The position numbers and the translations under genes were made by a program. Positions 17,523-63,805 of a DNA stretch of 64,000 nucleotides are shown in pieces. The stretch's first letter is position 1. Each line of letters begins with the position of its first letter. The stretch comes from Candidatus Campbellbacteria bacterium. GTDB lineage: Bacteria; Patescibacteriota; Minisyncoccia; Phycocordibacterales; EsbW-18. The notes under the pieces are model-generated. The model was not told where the DNA came from, ran no database searches, and worked only from the letters and a program-made list of their open reading frames with translations. The DNA is taken from the NCBI GenBank assembly GCA_045863475.1, contig BTUR01000001.1, positions 59,846 through 123,845 of the forward strand, read 5' to 3'.

Positions 17523-17562
17523 AACACAAAAACCGCCAAGCAAGGCGGTTTTTGTTTTTTTT
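17523..17562 (+). terminator. Rho-independent terminator after fusA
   Basis: aaaaccgccaagcaaggcggtttttgttttttttt. Confidence 0.75.
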
Positions 17563-17717: not shown

Positions 17718-18095
17718 ATGAAGAGATTCGTCCTCTGCGCGACGCTCGCGACGTTCGTCGCGGCGCTCGCCGTCTCCATCCCGGCCCAAGCAACGGACCC
17801 GAGTCCGCCGCTTGCCGAGTTGTCGATGGAGGCGCCGTACGCGCCCACCGATATCAATACCTTCTGCGAAGTCCAGATCGGCCTGACCCCTGCCATCCTC
17901 ACCGAGCACGTCCTCGTCCTGCCCGACCTCACCGGCGACCGTGTCGACCGCGACGTCGGCTGGGTCGACATCTCCGCGAACCCCTTCTTCGTGCGAACGG
18001 TCGACACAACGACCACTTCGAGCTCCATCGGCGCCGACCGACAGCGTGACACCGGCGAGAAACGAGGGGGCGCCCTGCGCGCCCATCCGACCTGA
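17718..18095 (+). CDS. Small secreted protein of unknown function on a high-GC (~66%) island
   Basis: Sec signal peptide MKRFVLCATLATFVAALAVSIPAQA; RBS aagaggtg; GC3-rich codon usage unlike flanking fusA; own promoter-like and terminator. Confidence 0.55.
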   Translation: MKRFVLCATLATFVAALAVSIPAQATDPSPPLAELSMEAPYAPTDINTFCEVQIGLTPAILTEHVLVLPDLTGDRVDRDVGWVDISANPFFVRTVDTTTTSSSIGADRQRDTGEKRGGALRAHPT

Positions 18096-18118: not shown

Positions 18119-18160
18119 GGGAAACCCCGAGTCCGAAAGGATTCGGGGTTTCTTCTTTTT
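18119..18160 (+). terminator. Rho-independent terminator
   Basis: aaaccccgagtccgaaaggattcggggtttcttcttttt. Confidence 0.65.
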
Positions 18161-19977: not shown

Positions 19978-20893
19978 GGCCGTACTGAATATGATTACTT
20001 CAATTAACTGCATACCGCGGAGCATATAGATGCGAGCCCTTGTGGTGCGCCTCGAAACCCTCCGCTCAAAAAGCGGTTTTTTTGTTCTCATAGACAGTCG
20101 ATGACCTTTGACAACTGCATAAGCAATAAAGAATCAAATGCTTATTTCGCGCAAGCGAAGTAAGCGCAGGTATCTCGTGCGGCTCATCTAGCGCCGCGCG
20201 GGAATCAAACAACGTGTACCGCGCAGCGGTGTGTTGGTGCACGGAATCGCAGACGCATGTAGGTGCGTATGCGATAAAGACGGTTTTTAGATTTCCTAAC
20301 GGGAGATTTAAAGGGCGTATGGTGGATGCCTTGGTTCTATGTGGCGATGAAGGACGTGGTGTAACTGCGATAAGCTTCGGGGAGGTGTTAAGCAACCTTT
20401 GATCCGGAGATTTCCGAATGGGGAAACCCTGTCGAGTAACCCTCGATAACCGACGCAGCGATGCGCGGAGCATACCCTGGGAAGTGAAACATCTCAGTAC
20501 CAGGAGGAAAAGAAAACAAATGTCATTCCCTTAGTAGCGGCGAGCGAAACGGGAGCAGCCCAAACCACACTGTACTTGTATAGTGTGGCGTTGTAGGGCG
20601 GTAACGCCTGTTTTTAACAAGGAGAAAGTTACAAAATACATCTTTAGTCGAATGCGCTGGAAAGCGCAATCCCAGAAGGTAACAGTCCTGTAGACGAAAA
20701 AGATGTATCTTTCTAGTTACCGTTCCTGAGTACCTCAAGACACGAATAGCTTGGGGGAATCCGCCGGAACTAACCGGCAAGGCTACATACACATAGAGAC
20801 CGATAGTGAACTAGTACCGCGAGGGAAAGGTGAAAAGAACCCCGGAGAGGGGAGTGAAATAGATCTGAAACCATATGCCTACAAGGAGTCAGA

Positions 20894-21228
20894 GCCGAGC
20901 TCTACTTTTTGTTTTTAATTTTCTTTGAACATGTTGAAGGTACGCTCGTGCATATGCACGTTGTGTATCTGATACAAAACACGGTGAGCCACGAACTGTA
21001 CGTTGGTGTAACACGCGACCTTAAAAAGAGGTTGGTGACACATAACAGCGGTGCGGTTACGGCAACGCGACGCAGCGGCGAGTGGGTCTTGATTTACGCG
21101 GAGGCGTATCGAGATGAGCACGACGCGCGCGAGCGAGAGCATCACCTCAAACAGCGCGGCGCGGCAAAACGCGGCGTGTATGAAAGAGTTCGAAGAAGTT
21201 TCCTTGAAAACAAAAAGTAGAGCTTCGG
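20894..21228 (+). other. Intervening sequence (IVS)-like insertion in the 23S helix-25 region, closed by a ~17-bp stem (gccgagctctactttttg ... caaaaagtagagcttcgg)
   Basis: rRNA similarity is interrupted after CAAGGAGTCAGAGC and resumes at GCGTGCCTATTGAAGAATGAGCCAACGAGTT; the insertion termini are an almost perfect inverted repeat. Confidence 0.65.
20954..21220 (+). CDS. GIY-YIG nuclease-superfamily protein (UPF0213-like, ~88 aa) encoded inside the 23S insertion
   Basis: VYLIQN...ELYVGVTRDLKKRLVTHNSG...LIYAEAYRDEHDAREREHHLK GIY-YIG motifs; ORF exactly fills the loop, stop codon TAG lies in the 3' stem arm. Confidence 0.7.
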   Translation: MHVVYLIQNTVSHELYVGVTRDLKKRLVTHNSGAVTATRRSGEWVLIYAEAYRDEHDAREREHHLKQRGAAKRGVYERVRRSFLENKK

Positions 21229-22640
21229 TCATGGCGTGCCTATTGAAGAATGAGCCAACGAGTTTAAGTATGCGGCGAAGCTAAATCCTTTGTCGGATGA
21301 AGCTGCAGGGAAACCGAGTGTTAATAGCGCGTACTTTGAAAGCAAGGAGGTCGGACGTGTAGGTGAGCAATCACACACGCGTTCGGCATTCTCGCTTTCA
21401 AAAGGTCGTATACTTAAGACCCGAAGCTAGGTGAGCTACCCATGAGCAGGGTGAACTTTGTCGAAAGATGAAGGGAGGCCCGAACCGGTTGATGGTGCAA
21501 AATCTTCGGATGACTTGTGGGTTGGAGTGAAAAGCTTATCGAACCTAGTAATAGCTGGTTCTCTCCGAAACAGCTTTTGGGCTGGCGTACAGCGTACCTC
21601 TTGGGGGTAGAGCACTGGATGGTCCGGATAGGGAGAAATCTCGCTGGACCAATCAAACTCCGAATACCAAGAGTAAGTACTGTGCAGTTAGACCGTGGGG
21701 GCTAAGCTCCACTGGTCAAAAGGGAAACAGCCCTTGATCTCAAGTTAAGGTCCCTAAATCGATGCTAAGTGCAAGTCGAGGAGGTGAAATTTCTCAGACA
21801 CTGAGGAAGTTGGCTTAGAAGCAGCCATCTTTTAAAGAAAGCGTAACAGCTCACTCACTCAGAGATTTCGCGCCACAGACTATCGGGGCTAAGTATCGTA
21901 CCGAAACTGAGGATGACACGTGCGTTCGCGCATGTGTCGTGGTAGGAGAGCATTTCCATCTGCGATGAAGCCGAAGGCGTGAGCCACGGTGGAGCGATGG
22001 GAAGAGAGAATGTTGGTACAAGTAACCGCAATGCGGGTGAAATACCCGCACGCCGAAAAACCGAGGTTTCCTTCGCGATGGTAATCAGCGAAGGGTTAGT
22101 CGGGCCTAAGCGAATGGCGAAAGCCGGACGTGATGGACACACGGTTAATATTCCGTGACTCGGCTGTAATTCGATGGAGAGACGGAGTGAAGTATATATC
22201 GCACATTATTGGATTTGTGTCGGGCATGCGAGGAGGTCTGTTTGGCAAATCCGGCAGACACTACTCCAGAGGCATGTTCGGGAACCCAATCTACGGAACG
22301 GGGAACGATATAAAGCGCGCTTCCAAGAAAATCTTCTAAGGTTAATTACAGACGACCCGTACCGCAAACCGACTCCGGTGGTTAGCTCGAGTAGAGTAAG
22401 GCGAACGAGTGAGAGGTCCTCAAGGAACTCGGCAAAAAAGCGACCGTAAGTTAGCAATAAGGTCTGCCTGCGCAGCAGTGCGTGGGCCGCAGCTAAAGTC
22501 TTCCTGGCGACTGTTTATCAAAAACACAGCTCCCTGCGAACTCGTAAGAGGATGTATAGGGGGTGACACCTGACCAATGCCAGAAGGTCAAGTATGGAGG
22601 GTCTTCTCCGCAAGGAGAAGGCTGAGCTATATAAGCCCTG

Positions 22641-22702
<62 letters not shown>

Positions 22703-22765
22703 ACGCCGATGAGAACAAATGCTATGGTACGTAAATAGTCTGTGCGCATGGCGAAGTGCCACGTG

Positions 22766-23425
22766 CTATGCAGTTTCTTCAGGTGCGGCTGTTTCTCCTT
22801 CTCCCTCCGCAGTTTCATCCTTACCTTTCTTTTCCACTTCGATTGCATCCATGTCAATCGGTGCAACCGGCTCTTCGATTTCTTCTTGCGGCTGAGAAAT
22901 TGCGGCAACCACTTCGTCTCCTTCGTTGAGAATCGTAACACCTGCAGGCACGGGTATGTCTTTAATGACAACTTGACTGTCAAACGTTTCAAGCGATGAC
23001 ACATCAACAGTGAGCTCGTGTGGCAAGTCTTTTGGCATCGCCTCAACTTCCACCTCGTGCATCACCTTCACCAGTGTACCACCCAAGTTCTTAACTGCGG
23101 GCGCCTCACCTGTGAACAACAGCGGGACATCGATGCGAAGCTTCTTTCCTTTCTCGATAACGTAAAAATCAACGTGCTCAAATACATCCGTGACCGGATG
23201 TTTTGTAACTTCATGAACGAGCGCGTCTTTCGGCTCACCAACACCTTCCAGTGTGATGATGGATGATTCACCGGCCGAGCGGAACACTTTTTCAAATGTC
23301 TTGCGGTCAACTGCAATCGGCGTGGATTCCTCTTTCGGACCGTAAAAAACCGCCGGAATCTTGCCGCCTTTGCGCAAGCTCTCCGCGTTTCCTGCCTCTC
23401 GTTTTTCTACTGTAAGCGTCAACAT
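22766..23425 (-). CDS. rplY: 50S ribosomal protein L25 / general stress protein Ctc
   Basis: L25/Ctc family (LTVEKREAG..SLRKGGKIPAVFYG, two beta-barrel domains, acidic tail); start set to MLTLTVEKR. Confidence 0.85.
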   Translation of the reverse strand: MLTLTVEKREAGNAESLRKGGKIPAVFYGPKEESTPIAVDRKTFEKVFRSAGESSIITLEGVGEPKDALVHEVTKHPVTDVFEHVDFYVIEKGKKLRIDVPLLFTGEAPAVKNLGGTLVKVMHEVEVEAMPKDLPHELTVDVSSLETFDSQVVIKDIPVPAGVTILNEGDEVVAAISQPQEEIEEPVAPIDMDAIEVEKKGKDETAEGEGETAAPEETA

Positions 23426-27473: not shown

Positions 27474-28329
27474 TGTGTGATGCCTCTATTTTTCCCTTGA
27501 GGGTCCGCAATTCTTTCAAAAATTTCTTTTCTTCTTCTTTTGTCGGCGGTTTGCCGTGCCAGTGGTAGTCATATTCAATCTCTTTGACTCCCTTGCCGGC
27601 AATGGTGTGCGCGATGATAACCGTCGGGCGCTCAGAAATCGCGCGCGCCTCATCCACCGCGTCCACAAACGCCATGATGTTGTGCCCGTCCACTTCAATG
27701 ACGTGCCAGTTGAACGCGCGCCATTTGTCGGCGAGCGGCTCCAGGGGCATCACGTGCTCGGTTGTACCGCTGATTTGAATGTTGTTGCGATCAATGACCG
27801 CGGTAAGATTGCTGAGTTTGTTCGCACCGGCAAACATCACGCCCTCCCAGGTGTTGCCCGCCTGCAATTCCCCGTCTGACATCAGACAGTACGTGCGCCA
27901 TTTCTTGCCGTCGAGGCGCGCGGCGTACGCGTAGCCCGCGGCCTGCGAGAGTCCGGAGCCCAGCGGCCCTGATGTCGTCTCAACTCCGGGCAGGCGTTCG
28001 CGCTCGGGATGTCCCTGCAGTCTCGTGCCAAATTTTCGAAGTGTTTTAAGCTCTGAAAGCGGAAAGTATCCGGCGTGTGCCATCGCGGCGTAGCGAACCG
28101 GCGTAATGTGGCCATTGGAGAGAAAGAGCCGGTCGCGTTCTTCCCACGCAGGATTCTTCGGGTCGTGTTTGAGAATATGAAAATAAAACGCCGTAAAGAT
28201 GTCCGCCATGTCCAACGGTCCCGCGGTGTGCCCCGACCCCGCGTCTTCCAGCATATCAATCAGTGATATGCGAATATCATTGGCTTTCAATTCTAAATCT
28301 TTAATCTTGTCGTCAGAAAGATGTGTCAT
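27466..28329 (-). CDS. Transketolase, N-terminal (TPP-binding) subunit of split enzyme
   Basis: GSGHTAGPLDMADI, GHPE...GVETTSGPLGSGLSQAAG, MSDGELQAGNTWE motifs; 8-nt overlap with C-terminal subunit gene. Confidence 0.9.
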   Translation of the reverse strand: MTHLSDDKIKDLELKANDIRISLIDMLEDAGSGHTAGPLDMADIFTAFYFHILKHDPKNPAWEERDRLFLSNGHITPVRYAAMAHAGYFPLSELKTLRKFGTRLQGHPERERLPGVETTSGPLGSGLSQAAGYAYAARLDGKKWRTYCLMSDGELQAGNTWEGVMFAGANKLSNLTAVIDRNNIQISGTTEHVMPLEPLADKWRAFNWHVIEVDGHNIMAFVDAVDEARAISERPTVIIAHTIAGKGVKEIEYDYHWHGKPPTKEEEKKFLKELRTLKGKIEASHND

Positions 28330-28417
28330 ACGCTTTTGAAAGTATACCCCGTGAGATAGTTTTTTACATCTCACGGGGTATAACAAATCTCCCTACAAAT
28401 TCTTGACAAACCATGCA

Positions 28418-28960
28418 CTAATCAAGAATTAAATAACCACACCAAACATTGTTCTTATCGACACCAATCCCATCATCTCCATAAGCACATTCAAAATATT
28501 GAGATGACTCATCCAAATGGAATGTCTGGGCGTCTGCGCCCTCCAACAATACGATCCCGTGACCAGCCATCACGTTATCATAAAACCAGACGTATTTACC
28601 TGATTTAAAAAATTCTGGGTCACCTCCCTCGGAAAACTTTTTTCCTGATGTAAGACCAACCGCTTTTGAAAGTTCTATATCATAATCTTCCGGTTTAACC
28701 CAAGAACCATACACCTGACCATTTGATGTAATGACACAAAAATTTTTGTTGTATCCACAATTAACTTTTGATGTGTCTTTAGACTGGGAAAGCACACTGT
28801 TTAATGTACCCGCCCATTCTTCACTTGCTTGTTGTGTTGTATTTATTAATTTTTGTTTTTTTAAATAAACCAATGCCCCAACGAGGGTTAGAAAAACTAC
28901 AAGAAAAATAGCGACGTAGGTGGCCGTCTTAAATGTAATTTTCAAATCAAACGACTTCAT
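28418..28960 (-). CDS. Hypothetical membrane-anchored protein (AT-rich gene, ~38% GC)
   Basis: N-terminal TM helix; intact ORF; compositionally distinct from flanking genes. Confidence 0.45.
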   Translation of the reverse strand: MKSFDLKITFKTATYVAIFLVVFLTLVGALVYLKKQKLINTTQQASEEWAGTLNSVLSQSKDTSKVNCGYNKNFCVITSNGQVYGSWVKPEDYDIELSKAVGLTSGKKFSEGGDPEFFKSGKYVWFYDNVMAGHGIVLLEGADAQTFHLDESSQYFECAYGDDGIGVDKNNVWCGYLILD

Positions 28961-28972
28961 GTCTAAAAATTG

Positions 28973-29650
28973 TTATAAATTTTTTAAACGTTCAATGGTT
29001 GCCTTGATGTTCTCACTGCCGAATATTGCAGAACCTGATACGAGCTTCGTTGCGCCTGCGTCCACAAGCTGTGGTGCGGTCTCCTCGGAAACACCGATAT
29101 CAACGGCAATGGGAAGTTCCGGATAACGTGCGCGTATCTCCTCAATTTTCTCGTACACACGCTCATCCAACGAGACGCCGTGGTATCCGATATCATCACT
29201 GCCCATGCACTGCACAAAATCCGGCACGCCGTGCGCTTCAAGTATGGAGAACAACACCTCGTTGGGGGTACTCGGTGTAATCGCCCACCCCACTTCAATA
29301 TCTGCATCTTTCAGTTTCTTAAAAATATCCCCGTGAGCTTTGGTACTCTCAATGTGCACCACCGCTGCAGCAACGCCAACTCGTATCCACGTGTCAATTT
29401 CTTTTTCTGGCTCGTCGATGAGCAAATCCACTTCGTAGTTTATTTCATCCCACAGCGGCAACCCTTCGTCCTCAGATGCAAGCCGCTGCATGTGTCCGTC
29501 GTCGCCGTTGTACGGCCATGTTTTTGACGGCGCGTAGGTACCGTCCGCAACATCCAACTGCACACGCGACACAGAACTGCGAACCAGTCCCGCCTTCGCG
29601 GTTATGTCTTCGTAGGTATCAGGAATGATTGCCGGTACGACTTCAATCAT
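28973..29650 (-). CDS. rpe: Ribulose-phosphate 3-epimerase (divergent)
   Basis: QLDVADG..., VDIGVSEETAPQLVDAGATKLVSGSAIF C-terminal signature; start set at MIEVVP (8-nt overlap with rpiB end). Confidence 0.65.
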   Translation of the reverse strand: MIEVVPAIIPDTYEDITAKAGLVRSSVSRVQLDVADGTYAPSKTWPYNGDDGHMQRLASEDEGLPLWDEINYEVDLLIDEPEKEIDTWIRVGVAAAVVHIESTKAHGDIFKKLKDADIEVGWAITPSTPNEVLFSILEAHGVPDFVQCMGSDDIGYHGVSLDERVYEKIEEIRARYPELPIAVDIGVSEETAPQLVDAGATKLVSGSAIFGSENIKATIERLKNL

Positions 29651-33052: not shown

Positions 33053-34045
33053 CTAGCGTCCTTCCAATTCGCCCATGCGCCGAGAAAGCTCGTCGGAGAG
33101 GTCTTTCAGCGACGCATCATCGTATATAGAAACCGTTAGTATCCGATCCTGCGGGATACCTGCGCGGGCAGAGAACTCTTTCTTCCGCTCCTGTACTTCC
33201 TCCGGCTGGAGTAAATCTGTTTTTGTCAGCAGGACGACTTCCGACTTATCGGAAAGCTCGCTAGAGTATTTTGAAAGCTCGCGGCGTACCGTGGTGTAGG
33301 CGTCAGCAGGATCTTCGTGCTCAAGTGAGATGCAGTGTACAACCATCTTCGTCCGTTTGATGTGACGTAAAAATTTGTGTCCCAATCCCCTTCCTTCCGA
33401 CGCGCCCTCAATAAGTCCCGGAATATCAGCGAGCACGTATCCGTACAAAACACCCAAAGAAGGATTAAGTGTGGTAAACGCGTACGCACCGACTTTTGCA
33501 TGTGCACCGGTGAGTGCGTTGAGTAAACTGCTCTTGCCCGCATTCGGCATACCAATGAAACCTGCGTCCACAACGAGCTGGAGTTCGATATCAACATCCG
33601 TTTCCTCACCCGGTTTTCCTTTCGTCGACTGTAGCGGTGTTACGTTACGTGAACCTTTGAAGTGTTCGTTGCCGTACCCGCCGTTACCGCCAACGAGAAT
33701 GGTTTCGCGCTGGCCGTCGGCAAGCAACTCCCACGTCTGCCCGGTATCCCGTCGCGTAACAATGGAACCCACCGGAACCTGGAGGATAAAATCCTCACCG
33801 TTGCGTCCCTCTTTACTGCGTCCTCCGCCGGGCGCACCGTCCTCCGCGTCATAATTCTTTTGGTCCATGTAGCGCTCAAGCACCGAGAGGTCACGAATGG
33901 CCTCCACAACAACGTCACCGCCGCGCCCGCCATTGCCTCCGGCCGCACCTGAAAACTCCTTGCCTTTCAAGTGCAGCCAACGGACAACGCCGTCGCCGCC
34001 GCGTCCCGCTTTTAGATGTAGATGTAGTTCGTCGATGAATGCCAT
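33053..34045 (-). CDS. obg: GTPase Obg
   Basis: Obg fold N-terminal Gly-rich domain (GGDGGRGG), G-domain GxPNAGKS. Confidence 0.95.
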   Translation of the reverse strand: MAFIDELHLHLKAGRGGDGVVRWLHLKGKEFSGAAGGNGGRGGDVVVEAIRDLSVLERYMDQKNYDAEDGAPGGGRSKEGRNGEDFILQVPVGSIVTRRDTGQTWELLADGQRETILVGGNGGYGNEHFKGSRNVTPLQSTKGKPGEETDVDIELQLVVDAGFIGMPNAGKSSLLNALTGAHAKVGAYAFTTLNPSLGVLYGYVLADIPGLIEGASEGRGLGHKFLRHIKRTKMVVHCISLEHEDPADAYTTVRRELSKYSSELSDKSEVVLLTKTDLLQPEEVQERKKEFSARAGIPQDRILTVSIYDDASLKDLSDELSRRMGELEGR

Positions 34046-34059
34046 GCGGACACTGTATC

Positions 34060-34087
34060 CTAGAGACGCTAAATAAAAAAGCGGCCC
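34060..34087 (-). terminator. Rho-independent terminator for the 34301..34088 gene
   Basis: Minus strand reads ggccccgtaactcgtaggggcc gcttttttatt. Confidence 0.55.
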
Positions 34088-34301
34088 CTACGAGTTACGG
34101 GGCCGGAGAGAGTGCGGGACGTACGTGCCGTCGCCGCGGAGGAAGGGACGTTCGGAGAAGACCGGCGGATGATCTTCGTACGCTCCGTCACAGACGGCGC
34201 AGGATCTTCCGTCGCGTTGCCCGCCCGGACCCGTGTCCAGCACGAAGGTGTGCCCGCGGCGGACCCGCGCTTCTTGAGACAGACTCTGGGACTGCGACAT
34301 G
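34088..34301 (-). CDS. Small protein (71 aa) of unknown function on a ~66% GC island
   Basis: Strong RBS ggaaggaggacac ATG on minus strand; terminator directly downstream; CxxC-containing; track ORF 34088..34462 trimmed to this start. Confidence 0.45.
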
Positions 34302-34361
34302 TGTCCTCCTTCCTTGAAAACTCTGCAGAAGCTATAGCATGAATGACCGCCTGTGTGCAAC

Positions 34362-35267
34362 TTATGCGGCAAGTGCGATTTCAGCAAGTTTAAGCGCACC
34401 TTCTTTACTGTCGGCAACCGCCATGAAACCTTCACGATGACAAAAGTATGCATCCGGAACACCTGTTACTGCCGCCAGCTCTGCCTCCTGCTTTCCGCGC
34501 CATGCATCCGGAAGAGGTTTTCTGTTGTCGTCATACATCGGAGGATCCACAACGCACACAAGCTGCCATCTGCCACCTTCGTGTTTGCGAATGAAGTAGA
34601 GTGTGTCGGGATGCGCGCCGAGAAACAGTGCGACGAGAATACGGTCAACGACCAAAGACTCGTCAAAGACAATGAGTTGTTTGTTCGGTGCTTTTTCGTA
34701 TGCGTCATCGACAATTGTTTTGATTTCAATCTCTCCTTTCGCCGAGACGATGAGCCGTGTCAAAATCTTCTTCGCAAGTTCGACGGCCTCGAGAAACCCC
34801 TCATCATTGCTCCTGCTCTCGCGCCACATCGGCTCGAAAAGCGACATGACATCTTGCACTAAAAACGGAGGGGTGTTGCGTTCATTGAGCGAGAAGAGTT
34901 TCGTGCCGTTATCGTACGCATCAACCTGCTGAACAAGGCGCGTGTCTATCCGGTCTGCTACTTCCTGCGAGCCGCACACCTGCACGCCGAACTTTTTCCA
35001 TACAAGCCCGAAAGACGCATACGGGATGCCGTTATCGCGCATGCCAGCACCAACTTCTTGGTGGTGGTCAAAGCGATTCTTTGCCTCGTCATAGACAAAT
35101 CCAACATCAAGCACGTAGTCGCCTGCATCAATGAGGGACTGGTCGCGCGTTCGAACGACTTCAATGTTGTCATCACCCAGTAACAGTGCGAGTGTGGCGA
35201 CGGCAAACACATCGTCGGCGTGAAAACCGGCGTTGTGCGTCACGATGCGGATTTTCTTTTCCGCCAT
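34362..35267 (-). CDS. MYG1/UPF0160-family metal-dependent hydrolase
   Basis: THNAGFHADDVFA...RTRD...DVGFVYD...DHHQ signature. Confidence 0.8.
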   Translation of the reverse strand: MAEKKIRIVTHNAGFHADDVFAVATLALLLGDDNIEVVRTRDQSLIDAGDYVLDVGFVYDEAKNRFDHHQEVGAGMRDNGIPYASFGLVWKKFGVQVCGSQEVADRIDTRLVQQVDAYDNGTKLFSLNERNTPPFLVQDVMSLFEPMWRESRSNDEGFLEAVELAKKILTRLIVSAKGEIEIKTIVDDAYEKAPNKQLIVFDESLVVDRILVALFLGAHPDTLYFIRKHEGGRWQLVCVVDPPMYDDNRKPLPDAWRGKQEAELAAVTGVPDAYFCHREGFMAVADSKEGALKLAEIALAA

Positions 35268-36343: not shown

Positions 36344-38884
36344 TTACGCCGTTGGCGCTATCTTCCACTCACCACTTTCAAGCAAGCTTTCGGCTTTTTT
36401 GTATTTCATCTGTTTGGTTTCCTTGCCGTTGGTGACGGTCACGAGATCATTGCGGCCGATTTTGTCGTGCGCGACCGCCGGCACCGGTGCACCCGCAGCA
36501 GATGTGTCACCGCCGATCATTTGCAATTTCGCGCGCTCGCGACGCAAGTTCTCTTCTTCCTTGGCGAATGCACCGGCACCCACTTGTGGCAGCATTGAGA
36601 GAATGTTCGCACGCACCGCCTCCTGCATGGAGCGGAACGCACGGATGCCTTCTTTTTGGTATTCAACGAGCGGGTCACGCTGGCCGTACGCACGGAGATT
36701 GACGCTGCTGCGCGCATAATCCATCAGCTCGAGGTGGTCAATCCACATGATATCAATGGTCTGCAGCATGAGCCGGCGAACCGCTTCAAAAAACGCCTCA
36801 TCGCCGAGTGCGGTGCGCTTTTCTTGTATGAGTGCGTGCGTTGCTTCGTCGTCGCCGACCGCTTCAAGGAGTTCTCGCTCAATGTCCTCGTGCGTTCCGA
36901 GCACCAGTGCGCGTCGGTTGCTGTACACGGATGAGCGCTGTGTGTTCATGACGTCGTCGAATTCCAACACGTGCTTACGCACATCAAAGTTAAGACCCTC
37001 AATCTTCTTTTGTGCGCTTTCAAGCGACTTGTTGATGAATCTGTTTTCAATCGGCACATCTTCAGGGATGCCGAAACGGCCCATCATGCGCTTCACCACA
37101 TCTGAAGCGAACACGCGCATGAGCGAATCCTCAAGCGAAACGAAAAATTGCGTCTCGCCCGGGTCTCCCTGACGACCGGAACGGCCGCGAAGCTGATCGT
37201 CAATGCGTCGCGCTTCGTGACGTTCGGTTCCGAGCACGAACAATCCTCCCAAAGACTTTATCTCTTCGTGTTCCTCAGGTGTTGCCTTCACGCCGCCGAG
37301 TTTGATGTCGACACCGCGACCGGCCATGTTTGTCGCAACCGTTACCGATCCTTTCTTTCCCGCCTGTGCGATAACTTCACCTTCCTGCTCGTGCATCTTT
37401 GCGTTGAGCACGGTGTGCGGAATACCCTCGCGCTGTAAATGCATGGAGAGCATCTCGTTTTTCTCAACAGACACCGTACCAATCAAGACCGGCTGACCTT
37501 TGTCGTGCGCCTCTTTCACGCGCTTTGCTATCGCTTCAAATTTTCCTTTCTCGGTCTGATAGATGAAATCGTTTCGGTCGACACGTGCAGACGGCCGATG
37601 CGTCGGGACGGGAATAACCTGCAGTCCGTATACTTTGTAGAATTCTTCTTCGCTGGACAGCGCCGTTCCCGTCATGCCGGAGATCTTCTTGTACATACGG
37701 AAGAAGTTCTGGTAGGTGATGGAGGCAAGCGTTCGTGATTCTTCCTGAATGCGCGTGCCTTCTTTTGCTTCAATGGCTTGGTGCAAACCTTCAGACCAGC
37801 GTCTGCCCGGCTGAAGCCGTCCGGTGAACTCATCAACAATGACAACCTGTCCGTCACGCACGATGTACTCCTTGTCGCGTCGGTACAAGGCCTTTGCGCG
37901 TACGGCCGTTTCAAGGTGGTGCACGTAGCGGATACCCGCATCGGTGTAAATGTTCTCGATACCGAGCATTTTCTCGGCTTTTTCAATACCCTTGTCGGTC
38001 AACAGCACGGCATTTTTCTTTTCATCCACCTCGTAGTCCTCATCCGGCTGGAGTCGCGCCGCGATTTGGGCGAATGTTGTGTACAATTTCTCCCCTTCAC
38101 GCGTCGCGACCGAGATAATGAGCGGTGTGCGGGCCTCATCAATCAAAATAGAGTCGATTTCGTCGACAATGGCGAAGTTATGCCCGCCGTCCTCCGGCGT
38201 ACGCTGGGAAAGGTCCTCTTTGCGGTACACCGTGTTGTCCCGCAAGTAGTCGAATCCGAATTCACTGTTTGTTCCGTAGGTAATGTCGGCACCGTACGCT
38301 TCTTTTTTCTCGCACGGACGCAAAAATTCGTATATAACTTTGAACGCAGCAACTTCATCGCGCTTTTGATCCGCTTCTGAATGCGCCGGGTCATACAAAA
38401 ACGACTGTCGCTGACTGTTAACAACACCCACCGTTAGTCCGAGCGCCGCGTACACTTGTCCCATCCATACCGCGTCACGTCGCGCAAGGTAATCGTTCAC
38501 CGTTACGATGTGCACACCGTGTCCGGTGAGTGCATTAAGGTATGCAGGAAGTGTTGCGACGAGCGTCTTTCCTTCTCCGGTTCGCATCTCGGCAATTGCA
38601 CTTTGATGCAAAATCATACCGCCGATGAGCTGCACGTCGTAGTGGCGTTGTTTGAGTGTTCGCTTCGCCGCTTCGCGTACGCACGCAAACGCTTCTGGCA
38701 ACACGTCATCGAGCGTCTCGCCGGAGGCCAAACGCTTCTTGAATTCTTGCGTCTTGTCGCGCAACTCCCCATCCGAGAGTTTTTCAATAGTCGGTTCCAG
38801 GGCGTTTATCTCATCCACCTTGGCGCGCAGTTTCGCAACCGCTCTTGAAGCATCATCTCCGAAAATCTTCTTTAAAAAATCCAT
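36344..38884 (-). CDS. secA: Preprotein translocase ATPase SecA
   Basis: Full-length SecA motor domains, DEAD-like Walker motifs. Confidence 0.95.
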   Translation of the reverse strand: MDFLKKIFGDDASRAVAKLRAKVDEINALEPTIEKLSDGELRDKTQEFKKRLASGETLDDVLPEAFACVREAAKRTLKQRHYDVQLIGGMILHQSAIAEMRTGEGKTLVATLPAYLNALTGHGVHIVTVNDYLARRDAVWMGQVYAALGLTVGVVNSQRQSFLYDPAHSEADQKRDEVAAFKVIYEFLRPCEKKEAYGADITYGTNSEFGFDYLRDNTVYRKEDLSQRTPEDGGHNFAIVDEIDSILIDEARTPLIISVATREGEKLYTTFAQIAARLQPDEDYEVDEKKNAVLLTDKGIEKAEKMLGIENIYTDAGIRYVHHLETAVRAKALYRRDKEYIVRDGQVVIVDEFTGRLQPGRRWSEGLHQAIEAKEGTRIQEESRTLASITYQNFFRMYKKISGMTGTALSSEEEFYKVYGLQVIPVPTHRPSARVDRNDFIYQTEKGKFEAIAKRVKEAHDKGQPVLIGTVSVEKNEMLSMHLQREGIPHTVLNAKMHEQEGEVIAQAGKKGSVTVATNMAGRGVDIKLGGVKATPEEHEEIKSLGGLFVLGTERHEARRIDDQLRGRSGRQGDPGETQFFVSLEDSLMRVFASDVVKRMMGRFGIPEDVPIENRFINKSLESAQKKIEGLNFDVRKHVLEFDDVMNTQRSSVYSNRRALVLGTHEDIERELLEAVGDDEATHALIQEKRTALGDEAFFEAVRRLMLQTIDIMWIDHLELMDYARSSVNLRAYGQRDPLVEYQKEGIRAFRSMQEAVRANILSMLPQVGAGAFAKEEENLRRERAKLQMIGGDTSAAGAPVPAVAHDKIGRNDLVTVTNGKETKQMKYKKAESLLESGEWKIAPTA

Positions 38885-45932: not shown

Positions 45933-46601
45933 ATGCAGAACAACACTCATTTCAGCAAAAAAAATAAAGACTATGAAGCTTACTGGAAGGACAGAATCGG
46001 AAGAAACAGAACTTACATAACACCGATTCATCGAAAAATTTTGGAGTTGGTCTCGAAAATAGCGAAGCCGGGTAGTGCCGTCCTTGATTTGGGGGTTGGT
46101 CCCGGCCACGTGTTTAGAGAATTACAAAAAGACTACAAAGTATACGGGGCGGAAATCTCTACCACAGTATTTGATCTTTATGACTTTCCCACCGAAAACA
46201 TCAAACATGTTGACTTGGAAAAAGAGATGCCCGCGTTTGATGGAAACCCAAACTTCTCCGTGATTATCGCAAGCCACATCATCCACCATTTTGATGATCC
46301 GCTGGCTTTCCTGCGTCGGGTTAAAGAAAAAATGGATAGCAACACTCGCCTCTTGGTGGCCACACCCAATACTGTATTTATAAACTACAGAATAAAATAC
46401 CTCCTTCTTGCTCAGTTTCCTGATCTTAGTCGTGCCCACGTCAACTACCTGACTCCACGTGAATATAGAAAATTATTCGAAGAGGCAGGTCTAGAAATTG
46501 AAACATTTGCAGGAATTAAGCATTACCCCCTCCTAGTTTTAAGCACAATCTTTCCCTCCCTGTTCTCACAAACACTATTCTTTGTTGTTAAAAAGGTCTA
46601 A
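45933..46601 (+). CDS. Class I SAM-dependent methyltransferase (AT-rich gene)
   Basis: VLDLGVGPGHV motif I, acidic motif II YGAEIS. Confidence 0.7.
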   Translation: MQNNTHFSKKNKDYEAYWKDRIGRNRTYITPIHRKILELVSKIAKPGSAVLDLGVGPGHVFRELQKDYKVYGAEISTTVFDLYDFPTENIKHVDLEKEMPAFDGNPNFSVIIASHIIHHFDDPLAFLRRVKEKMDSNTRLLVATPNTVFINYRIKYLLLAQFPDLSRAHVNYLTPREYRKLFEEAGLEIETFAGIKHYPLLVLSTIFPSLFSQTLFFVVKKV

Positions 46602-47201
46602 AACTACCTGTAGGGTTTTTTCTTCTCGCACAATCGATGCGGGAGTTTGAAAGTTTAAGTAATCCCAGTCAATGAAATAAATCTCTCCTTTCTCATTTAG
46701 GAGGATATTTTTAGCTTTAATATCCCCGTGTACGTATCCAAGATCGTGTAGCCTTGAAGTAAAATCTTGAACTTGTTTTTTAATTTTCATTCTTTCAGCC
46801 AGAGTTGGATTTTTTGCCAAAAAATCTTTCAGGCTTTCAGACTCTGTAATAACCTCAGTTAGTATTTTATTTTCAAAAAGAACGACTTTTGGAATATTGT
46901 TTTTTAAAACAACGTCCTCGGTTAGTTTCTTTAGGATTAGAAAACATTCCTTGTCCGGCAACCAATCAAGCCCCATTTTCTTGTGGTAAATCCTGGTAAC
47001 GGGGTTTTTAATTTTTATAACGAACCACTCAGGTTTCTCTTTTTGTTTTACCCTGTAAATAAAATGTGTTGGCTTTTCGTTTCCACAAAAAAAAGAGGTG
47101 ACGTCTAATCGGTTTTTAAACTTCAACTTATAAAAAAATAACACTGGAAAATAGAACAGAAACAGGATAATCTTCGATGTGTAAAGTAAAACACTGTTCA
47201 T
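46575..47201 (-). CDS. Kdo/WaaP-like lipopolysaccharide kinase-family (protein-kinase-like fold) protein, AT-rich gene
   Basis: LHDLGYVHGDIKAKNILL catalytic loop, YFIDWD metal-binding motif, N-terminal membrane anchor. Confidence 0.6.
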   Translation of the reverse strand: MNSVLLYTSKIILFLFYFPVLFFYKLKFKNRLDVTSFFCGNEKPTHFIYRVKQKEKPEWFVIKIKNPVTRIYHKKMGLDWLPDKECFLILKKLTEDVVLKNNIPKVVLFENKILTEVITESESLKDFLAKNPTLAERMKIKKQVQDFTSRLHDLGYVHGDIKAKNILLNEKGEIYFIDWDYLNFQTPASIVREEKTLQVVLDLFNNKE

Positions 47202-47228
47202 TTTCGTTTGATTTCAATAATCGACCGT

Positions 47229-47855
47229 TTATTTTTTTACAACAAAAAAATAACCAAGGGGCATGAAACGTGGAGAAAAGTGGCTATCTTTTTTTATCCA
47301 ACTAATCACCCTATCGAGGAAGCGCACAAGAAGCATCATACCTTCCTTGACCACAGCAAACCTATACAGACCGAATAGCGCGTGGTACAGCACGCTAAAA
47401 GCCCCCGTTCCGAGTGGTGAGACATGTATCTCGGTAAAACCGGCGTCTGCAAAAATACGTTCAAGCGCAGACTGAGTGTAACGAAAATAGTCGTCTGGAG
47501 ACCCGTGGACGTTAAAAAGAAACGGCGTTGAACCAACGAGTACGCCACCTTGTTTGAGTATGCGGAAGCTTTCATTAACCGCGTTTTGGTACCCAAACAA
47601 GTGCTCCAAAACATTGAGCATAATCACGCCGTCATAACTCTCGTCCTTCAAAGGAAAAGGTTTTTGTGCATCAAACGTCATGTCTATATCCACACCCTCC
47701 TTAATATTTGCGACCTGGATCGTATGTGTACCAGAAATAAGTTCGTGGTATCCAGATTTTTTATCTCCACCAACATCGAGTATTTTTCCGTTGATGGTTA
47801 GGTGCGACATGCACTCATATTGAAGCCTGCGAAGCAGTGAAAATGTTTTGGTCAT
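47229..47855 (-). CDS. Class I SAM-dependent methyltransferase (Methyltransf_11-like)
   Basis: ILDVGGDKKSG motif I; ATGA start/stop overlap with upstream methyltransferase. Confidence 0.7.
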   Translation of the reverse strand: MTKTFSLLRRLQYECMSHLTINGKILDVGGDKKSGYHELISGTHTIQVANIKEGVDIDMTFDAQKPFPLKDESYDGVIMLNVLEHLFGYQNAVNESFRILKQGGVLVGSTPFLFNVHGSPDDYFRYTQSALERIFADAGFTEIHVSPLGTGAFSVLYHALFGLYRFAVVKEGMMLLVRFLDRVISWIKKDSHFSPRFMPLGYFFVVKK

Positions 47856-62481: not shown

Positions 62482-63109
62482 GTGATACTTCTTGCCGCAG
62501 TGTCCCGCCATACCGCAGATATAATCCCCAAGCGATATAAAACAGTCCGATGCCTGCTGAAATCCATTGCTTCCAGAGAAGCGGAATGCCGATGACCTGC
62601 GTCAACAGGAGCACCACACCAAGCAAAACGAGTGTGCGTGTTTGTTTGCGGTTCATGGGGATAAGTATAGCGTGCAGAACCAAAATATTGTAGTGTGAAT
62701 TACAGACGAACCGCGAAGCATGCGCTTCGCAGAAAGGAGAGCACCATGAGAGCGTGGAGGGGATGATGCGTAGGCACACCCGCAGGAAAACTTCCAACTT
62801 CGGCAAGATGATCGACCGCGGTATCTGGATTCGCCACAGGTACATCCAGAACGGCATCCGCCGGCGCATCATCGATGGACGACGCAGTTACATCGTCCGG
62901 GCTCACCGTGGAAGGAGCACCTCACATCGGTGCAGGAGCACCGTCACCAACATGAAGGCCCGTACCATCTAGGGGGTGATCCGGCGCCTCGGCGCCATAT
63001 CTGCCGCCGACGGGGCGGTGCAGGGTCCCACCGCAACGGGTAGTTGCCGCAGCACCATCCGCAACACTCTCCTGCCACCACGGCCGTCTCGATTCCGAGG
63101 CGGCCGCGT

Positions 63110-63805
63110 TTATTTTCCAGAAACAATCACCACAAATTCCCCTTTTTGCTTCTCTGTGTTGTCTTCAAAATATTTCAGTACCTCTTCGGCACTTCCGCGC
63201 ACTACTTCTTCGTAAATTTTGGTCAGTTCGCGCGCGATGACGACAGTTTTTTCTTTCGGCAGAACATCCGAAAGTGACGCGAGTGTTTTCATGATGCGGT
63301 GCGGTGATTCATAGAAAATCATCGCGCGCTTACTCTCCGCAATCTCTTTGAAGAGTGTTTGGCGTCCTTTTTTGTGCGGCAAAAACCCTAAGAACACAAA
63401 ATCCGCAACGGGCACGCTTGCAATGGAGAGCGCTGCAGTGAGCGCCGAAGGACCGGGAATAACTTCAATGCGAACATCCGGCATTTTCTCCCGAACGACT
63501 GACACCACGAGCCCGCCCGGGTCCGATACGCCCGGCGTTCCTGCATCAGAGACGAGCGCAACCTTCTTCCCCTCAGTTAGTGCTCCCATCACTGAGCCGA
63601 TTTTTGCGTGTTCGGTGCGCGCATTCAAAGATGTCGTGCGTGTGTGAATGTCGTACTTATCCAGCAGGCGCTTCGTTACTCGTGTGTCTTCACAAAAAAT
63701 AACGTCCGCCTCTTTCAAAATGCGCAACGCGCGGAGCGTCACGTCTTCCAAGTTGCCTATCGGCGTTCCCACCACGTAAAGCGTTCCGAGTATTTCACTT
63801 GTCAT
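63110..63805 (-). CDS. rsmI: 16S rRNA (cytidine1402-2'-O)-methyltransferase
   Basis: LYVVGTPIGNLEDVTLRALRILKEADVIFCEDTR tetrapyrrole-methylase-family N-terminus; start trimmed to MTSEILG. Confidence 0.85.
   Translation of the reverse strand: MTSEILGTLYVVGTPIGNLEDVTLRALRILKEADVIFCEDTRVTKRLLDKYDIHTRTTSLNARTEHAKIGSVMGALTEGKKVALVSDAGTPGVSDPGGLVVSVVREKMPDVRIEVIPGPSALTAALSIASVPVADFVFLGFLPHKKGRQTLFKEIAESKRAMIFYESPHRIMKTLASLSDVLPKEKTVVIARELTKIYEEVVRGSAEEVLKYFEDNTEKQKGEFVVIVSGK

Follow-up and report, generated by a model that had tools for sequence, protein, structure and literature searches.

A GC-rich island between MYG1 and obg in a Candidatus Campbellbacteria genome is probably a lineage-restricted small-protein gene

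The CPxCG-type small zinc-finger proteins of haloarchaea are an example of prokaryotic micro-proteins that consist of a single zinc-finger or zinc-knuckle domain. Actinobacteria have the small WhiB (Wbl) proteins, whose cysteines follow the pattern C-Xn-C-X2-C-X5-C. A second point of reference concerns how the position of a transcription terminator affects its efficiency: when one lies only a few base pairs past a gene in E. coli, the ribosome translating that gene represses it almost completely (PMC4824070). A third is provided by the taxonomically restricted orphan small ORFs of uncultivated bacteria, which lack homologues beyond a narrow clade and are recognised mainly by genomic context (compare the novel gene families catalogued from uncultivated taxa, PMC10849945). 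Here we analyse a short GC-rich island in a 64 kb stretch of DNA (the window, meaning the whole stretch analysed) from a Candidatus Campbellbacteria (Paceibacteria) metagenome-assembled genome (MAG). On balance we judge it probable that the island is a genuine, lineage-restricted and fast-evolving small protein gene, expressed from its own signals.

The neighbourhood lies on the minus strand throughout, in the order secA, a VTT/DedA-like membrane protein, a holin-4-type membrane protein, MYG1/UPF0160, the island, obg and gatB. MYG1/UPF0160 (35267..34362, family match 1e-67) ends in a TAA stop at 34364-34362, and obg (34045..33053, GTP1_OBG match 1e-40) begins with an ATG at 34045, in agreement with a first-pass annotation, made from the letters alone, that had placed the island between these two genes. 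Read from the sequence, a putative -35 hexamer, TTGCAC (34355..34360, minus strand), lies 1 nt past the MYG1 stop, with a putative -10 hexamer, TATAGC (34331..34336, minus), 18 nt downstream; a consensus promoter scanner made no call at TTGCAC-N18-TATAGC. The Shine-Dalgarno (SD) sequence GGAAGGAGG (34305..34313, minus) stands 4 nt ahead of an ATG at 34300, and both sit right at the 5′ edge of the GC-rich island. The open reading frame that follows (34088..34300, minus, stop included; TAG at 34090-34088) encodes the 70-aa protein MSQSQSLSQEARVRRGHTFVLDTGPGGQRDGRSCAVCDGAYEDHPPVFSERPFLRGDGTYVPHSLRPRNS, with one CxxC (C34-A-V-C37). The GenBank submitters called the same gene, and its product is identical to their hypothetical protein AMXMBFR44_1030. 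The frame ends in an intrinsic terminator (34071..34105, minus) composed of CGGCCCC, a 10-nt loop and GGGGCCG (hairpin 34105-34082), followed by CUUUUUUAUUU. The ribosome-binding site, ATG and terminator of the first-pass annotation are thus all present, as GGAAGGAGG-N4-ATG and a hairpin of 7 G-C pairs followed by U6AUUU. Its "71-aa CxxC protein" is right about the CxxC, a single pair formed by C34 and C37, and one residue too long, the stop codon having been counted. Taken together, the promoter-like element, strong SD, ATG and intrinsic terminator would make up a self-contained expression unit.

Upstream of the ~58 long ORFs of the window an SD is almost never present. AAGGAG or GGAGG occurs at proper spacing at only ~4 gene starts in the 64 kb (918, 18251, 25423 and 34300), and AAGGAGG as such is not enriched (9 found, 5 expected). 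These four SD-led starts include accessory or orphan genes, and most housekeeping genes of the window have no SD (for example upstream of 15347, 31637, 33053..34045 and 36344..38884). In several of them a -10-like box precedes the ATG by 6 nt, for example in gatB (TATAAT-N6-ATG) and obg (TACAGT-N6-ATG). As far as can be read from these start regions, the pattern suggests widespread leaderless or SD-independent initiation among the genes of the window; a literature search on SD usage in Patescibacteria returned nothing directly useful. The phrase "strongly translated", applied to the ORF in the first pass, extrapolates from the SD match alone.

The coding sequence has a GC content of 66.7%, compared with 51.6% for the window, 54.6% for obg and 52.1% for MYG1, so the contrast first described as ~66% against ~53% in the flanks holds (52–55% for MYG1 and obg). 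Ranked against every 213-bp segment of the 64 kb, the island lies at z = 2.8, in the top 0.28%. Five other stretches also reach ≥64% GC, and the island is a tail event and not a unique one. GC at the three codon positions of the ORF is 0.69/0.55/0.76; the order GC3 > GC1 > GC2 is the usual coding signature of GC-rich genes, and the other frames show atypical orders. The open frame alone proves nothing, because a 70-codon open frame has a chance of ~20% per frame at 67% GC (calculated from base frequencies) and three of the six frames are largely open across the island.

The compositional likeness to an earlier island downstream of fusA is also correct. That island (17718-18095, plus strand) holds a 125-aa signal-peptide ORF with 66.9% GC, a GC3 of 0.85 and an AAGAGG SD, and terminators flank it at about 17535-17560 and 18125-18160. 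Its protein shows no sequence relationship to that of the 70-aa ORF, found only itself among 5.8 G proteins and matched no Pfam or PHROG family. Departures of the opposite compositional sign occur in two low-GC patches (29–41%, in a window of 52% GC) at 28250-29000 and 46500-47250, the first of which contains a 180-aa ORF at 28418-28960 with 37% GC; these patches are possibly foreign or accessory segments.

With Obg as the anchor, 160 related loci were fetched. MYG1 and obg are adjacent in this order in 95 of the 160; the spacer between them has a median of 36 nt, whereas that of the window measures 316 nt. In two lineages, L002 and L005 (the latter also fetched as L083), the spacer holds a small ORF on the same strand, and across the window and these two the ORFs in the slot are 70–97 aa long. 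Both relatives have a promoter-like element, TTGnnn-N17-18-(C/T)ATAG, right after the MYG1 stop: the hexamer directly past the stop is TTGCGC in L002 and TTGACA in L005, and the -10 equivalents are CATAGT and TAGAGT. Each ORF has a strong SD and is followed by a terminator and then by TACAGT. The close relatives L001, L003 and L004 have spacers of ~10–20 nt from MYG1 stop to obg ATG, with no ORF.

The L002 and L005 proteins (P0005 and P0004) match each other by BLASTP with E = 6e-5 and share the pattern C-x2-F-x3-4-GG-x6-C-x2-C-x2-P-Y-x2-H-R. The window protein retains F19, G26, G27, C34, C37, Y41 and H44, and its GG-x6-C-x2-C-x3-Y-x2-H segment (codons G26–H44; 34169..34225, minus), a candidate metal-binding knuckle, has spacing identical to that in both relatives. 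The first family cysteine is absent from the window copy, which has G16/H17 there, and only C34, C37 and H44 are conserved ligands. In pairwise BLASTP the window ORF gave E = 0.02 against L005 and no match against L002. Because these pairwise scores are weak, two HMM controls were run without the window sequence. A profile built from L002 and L005 only ranked the window ORF about 5th among non-self hits in 18,836 six-frame ORFs, with an E-value of 3.6; it scored 8.8 bits, as high a value arising in only 4 cases when its own sequence was shuffled 5,000 times. Of the 18,836 six-frame ORFs (1.3 M residues), none but the family ORFs carries the relaxed motif GG-x(3-8)-C-x2-C-x3-Y-x2-H, a count to be read with the caveat that recognition of the motif was in part post hoc.

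In a neighbour-joining tree of Obg and MYG1, the window is sister to L002, followed by L003 and then by L001 with L004, and L005 lies outside. This fits an old resident gene with vertical descent and at least two losses, or alternatively two gains. Independent assemblies of the L002 organism (L161 and L162) are 100% identical to L002 in DNA and so uninformative on variation. The first-pass annotation had proposed comparing obg–MYG1 regions between genomes, naming non-conservation as the refuting outcome; the small ORF, the Cys/His motif, the SD and the terminator are all found in L002 and L005.

Insertions recur at the MYG1–obg junction in Paceibacteria. In L006 (3508-4000) and L105 the junction holds four-helix-bundle proteins of the 23S-IVS type, unrelated to the window ORF; in L010 (3432-4000) an ORF of 118–129 aa that has an internal duplication and a strong SD; and in L131 and L151/L153 larger inserts. 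The unrelated cargo of the slot (L006, L105, L010, L131 and L151) is not GC-elevated.

Searches of Pfam, NCBIfam, PHROGs and PADLOC with the 70-aa ORF gave no match, and no Pfam family, WhiB included, matched it even at E ≤ 10. Sub-threshold noise for the ORF and its two relatives comprised zf_DPOE_2 (E 0.11, a family member's best Pfam score), a PHROG HNH family (0.049) and phrog_11394 (0.067). An exhaustive phmmer search of 1.84 billion representatives returned the protein itself and two repeat proteins, which we judged to be chance hits, matching via the fragments 'SYEDHP' and 'FLRGDGTW'. Only the three known members were recovered when 5.8 G proteins were searched (k-mer/HMMER), whether the query was the single sequence or a three-sequence profile. 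Neither tblastn against plasmids and phages nor a scan of viral contigs matched the ORF. A profile search of the PDB yielded nothing credible for the family; a designed beta-trefoil lectin (E 0.012) was rejected, as its three repeated weak matches do not include the cysteines. In other bacteria the genes for L27 and L21 often lie upstream of obg; ribosomal protein L27 was considered as a candidate, as was RbpA, and both were set aside for want of motif similarity by eye. From these comparisons the family appears to be tiny, with three known members and a conserved core limited to F-x3-6-GG-x6-C-x2-C-x3-Y-x2-H.

AlphaFold2 runs on three-sequence alignments reached a pLDDT of 51 with the window copy first and 57 with the L002 copy first. 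Both predicted, at low pLDDT, a strand-strand-short-helix arrangement around the CxxC, and values of 51–57 were too low to justify a fold search. The models suggest, with low confidence, that the conserved core folds into a beta-hairpin followed by a short helix, an arrangement that would suit a small metal-binding knuckle. Outside the core the protein is rich in Gly, Arg, Pro and Ser and probably disordered. Judging by its motif it is possibly a zinc knuckle; the window copy has no first family cysteine, and "CxxC protein" is therefore not yet upgradable to "zinc finger". Its position between MYG1, a homologue of an RNA exonuclease, and Obg, a ribosome-assembly GTPase, is suggestive. Guessing from this neighbourhood, the product might be a zinc-knuckle-like adaptor that binds an RNA or protein partner, maybe in a ribosome-biogenesis context shared with MYG1 and Obg. 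The 70-aa ORF is otherwise an ordinary hypothetical small gene.

Several of these results could also be accommodated by an ORF that does nothing, the island being GC-rich spacer DNA or what is left of an old insertion, its open frame a by-product of GC content and its SD and motif resemblance fortuitous or decaying. Open frames are cheap at 67% GC, and the island has three. The protein is an orphan in searches of 1.84 G and 5.8 G proteins, its AlphaFold2 model is mostly disordered, its first family cysteine has been lost, and the gene is missing from L001, L003 and L004. Against this, an SD-N4-ATG stands exactly at the start of this frame in an SD-poor genome, and the codon-position GC pattern matches the same frame. 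The motif and its spacing are kept in comparison with L002 and L005 (p about 1e-3 against shuffles), and the full promoter-SD-ORF-terminator architecture recurs in three lineages with DNA beyond alignment. We consider a non-functional ORF unlikely, and a functional small protein gene remains the preferred reading.

The terminator of this gene stands in a mildly intriguing relation to the stop codon. Its 5′ arm (34105-34099), 10-nt loop and 3′ arm (34088-34082) are followed by C-U6-A-U3 down to 34071, with a folding energy of -15.5 kcal/mol (z -1.9; 4 of 200 shuffles fold as well). A simple scanner missed it because the 10-nt loop exceeds the scanner's 8-nt limit. The TAG stop lies across the boundary between the hairpin loop and the 3′ arm; the stop-in-loop layout is also seen in the sister L002, and in L005 the stop lies 13 nt ahead of the hairpin. 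The start of obg, which has no SD, follows ~20–25 nt past the U-tract. Because the hairpin of the terminator contains the stop codon, termination should be weakened by ribosomes that complete the ORF, and part of the small-gene transcription could continue into obg through the ribosome-occluded terminator. TACAGT (34052..34057, minus), 6 nt ahead of the obg ATG at 34045, is a possible obg -10 box, and the hexamer recurs past the terminator of all three loci (window, L002 and L005); by analogy with TATAAT-N6-ATG at gatB, TACAGT-N6-ATG may be a leaderless-type obg promoter. A stop codon embedded in a terminator just upstream of obg offers a testable case of translation-dependent read-through.

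This layout raises the question of whether the act of translation, rather than the peptide, is what matters. On such a reading the ORF would be a leader whose translation into the terminator sets read-through to obg and ties it to translational capacity, the peptide being unimportant. The stop in the terminator loop (window and L002) or 13 nt before the hairpin (L005) fits well, as do the position of obg, ~20 nt past the U-tract and lacking an SD, and the published position effect of terminators near stop codons (PMC4824070); a strong SD would moreover favour tight ribosome–polymerase coupling. However, 70–97 codons is long for a leader peptide, and the conserved Cys/His/Tyr/Gly motif is unexpected if only translation counts. 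The ORF has no regulatory codon runs and there is no alternative antiterminator, the transcript as a whole folding at z = -0.28. All three loci have a -10-like TACAGT box past the terminator, which could give obg a promoter of its own, and most relatives express obg from a tight MYG1–obg junction without any such device. We regard an attenuator in which the peptide is unimportant as distinctly unlikely, and continue with the protein gene.

The GC content of that gene was examined further by comparing its GC3 with that of ORFs simulated with host codon usage, amino acids being kept. The window ORF (GC 67%, flanks 52–55%) has a GC3 of 0.754 against an expected 0.561 (z 3.3); the L002 ORF (GC 62%, flanks 49–50%) 0.758 against 0.438 (z 5.5); and the L005 ORF (GC 55%, flanks 41–46%) 0.609 against 0.364 (z 4.9). 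The GC excess is thus a property of the family and not confined to the window genome. The flanking Obg proteins are 68–75% identical among the three lineages, and DNA alignment of the three intergenic inserts was no better than for shuffled sequences except for terminator-like similarity. With DNAs beyond alignment and Obg diverged to this extent, synonymous sites should have equilibrated long ago, so that a frozen signature of horizontal transfer does not explain the GC3 excess. RNA structure does not explain it either (fold z = -0.28, -1.35 and -2.16 for the window, L002 and L005). Candidate causes are selection acting on the nucleotides or mRNA of a highly expressed unit, and repeated exchange within an unsampled GC-richer gene pool. 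An excess of GC at synonymous sites in three lineages, in spite of saturating divergence, is a feature that could repay follow-up.

The first of these causes can be combined with the terminator layout. The promoter-SD-ORF-terminator unit would then be a conserved cassette that makes obg expression report translational capacity, and the GC3 excess would reflect nucleotide- or mRNA-level selection, as opposed to history or protein function. We rate this combined proposal as quite improbable.

Recent horizontal acquisition from a high-GC donor, with the GC content as a frozen donor signature shared with the fusA island, would account for a GC content 15 points over the flanks and a GC3 of 0.76 (0.85 in the fusA island). 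It would also suit an SD-led start unlike those of most native genes, and a slot that took unrelated inserts in other lineages. But no homologue was found in GC-rich organisms, plasmids, phages or viral contigs, and the fusA-island ORF is likewise an orphan. The island borders have no repeats, integrase or target duplication; in particular, neither direct nor inverted repeats that would convincingly mark an insertion scar were found on either side. The family also occupies the same slot in a sister lineage and in an outgroup, which implies old residence, and GC3 is still z = 3.3–5.5 above host expectation when a frozen signature should have decayed. A recent transfer is accordingly very improbable in our view.

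Scarcely credible is the last reading, a structured non-coding RNA or 3′-UTR element of MYG1 with an incidental ORF: a GC-rich intergenic stretch ending in a hairpin would suit it, but the minimum free energy (MFE) of the putative transcript is no better than that of shuffled sequences (z = -0.28; 78 of 200 dinucleotide shuffles fold equally well), the L002 and L005 counterparts reach only z = -1.35 and -2.16 against -4.44 for another spacer of the window (62873-63112), and Rfam, searched over the whole window at the gathering threshold and over the region at E ≤ 10, has nothing relevant at the island. The evidence favours a small protein-coding gene over 3′-UTR or RNA structure here.

The spacer just mentioned (62873-63112, minus) is a third GC-rich intergenic stretch, with up to 68% GC, flanked by a 138-aa membrane ORF and the gene for an RsmI-like methylase. 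Its predicted fold has an energy of -123.2 kcal/mol (z = -4.44; 0 of 200 shuffles as good) and an MFE structure identical to the centroid. It contains no convincing ORF and matches no Rfam family, and is a candidate novel structured ncRNA. The same searches placed a 23S rRNA at 20299-22833, where the full bacterial model (positions 1-2925) is matched in only 2,535 nt; such a shortened LSU rRNA is consistent with a CPR bacterium. At the Rfam gathering thresholds the window showed neither a 16S nor a 5S rRNA.

How does the small gene between MYG1 and obg compare with the systems described at the outset? The cysteine spacing of its family, C-x15-17-C-x2-C-x6-H, and the small size and GC richness of the gene recall WhiB. 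Unlike WhiB, the fourth ligand is a His at +6 and not a Cys at +5, and the G[VI]WGG turn is missing. A WhiB-like identity was rejected: the fourth Cys and GVWGG are absent, there is no match to PF02467 at E ≤ 10, and the host is not an actinobacterium. The likeness to pyrBI-type attenuation, which is purely geometric, and to terminator suppression near stops (PMC4824070) lies in an ORF that runs into a hairpin upstream of obg, with a strong SD that favours coupling. In contrast to pyrBI-type leaders, the 70-aa ORF is far longer and carries a conserved Cys/His motif, with no regulatory codon run or antiterminator evident.

Zinc-finger micro-proteins share several features with this family: fewer than 100 aa, a single CxxC knuckle with distal ligands in an otherwise low-complexity chain, and a stand-alone gene with its own signals, in families that are often lineage-specific and unannotated. 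The window copy differs from them in having only three clearly conserved ligands and no zinc-finger match in Pfam or the PDB, and the family motif, C/H-x(1-2)-F...GG-x6-C-x2-C-x6-H, is not the paired CPxCG of the CPxCG zinc fingers. The product may work like a small zinc-knuckle micro-protein, but with an incomplete ligand set in this copy and no matching profile or structure it is not classed as one. If real, the gene adds another taxonomically restricted micro-protein family to the large unannotated pool of the Patescibacteria/CPR. Like the orphan small ORFs of uncultivated bacteria (compare PMC10849945), it is confined to a narrow clade and recognised mainly by its genomic context; it stands apart from them in having only three known members and in the persistent GC3 excess that all three display.
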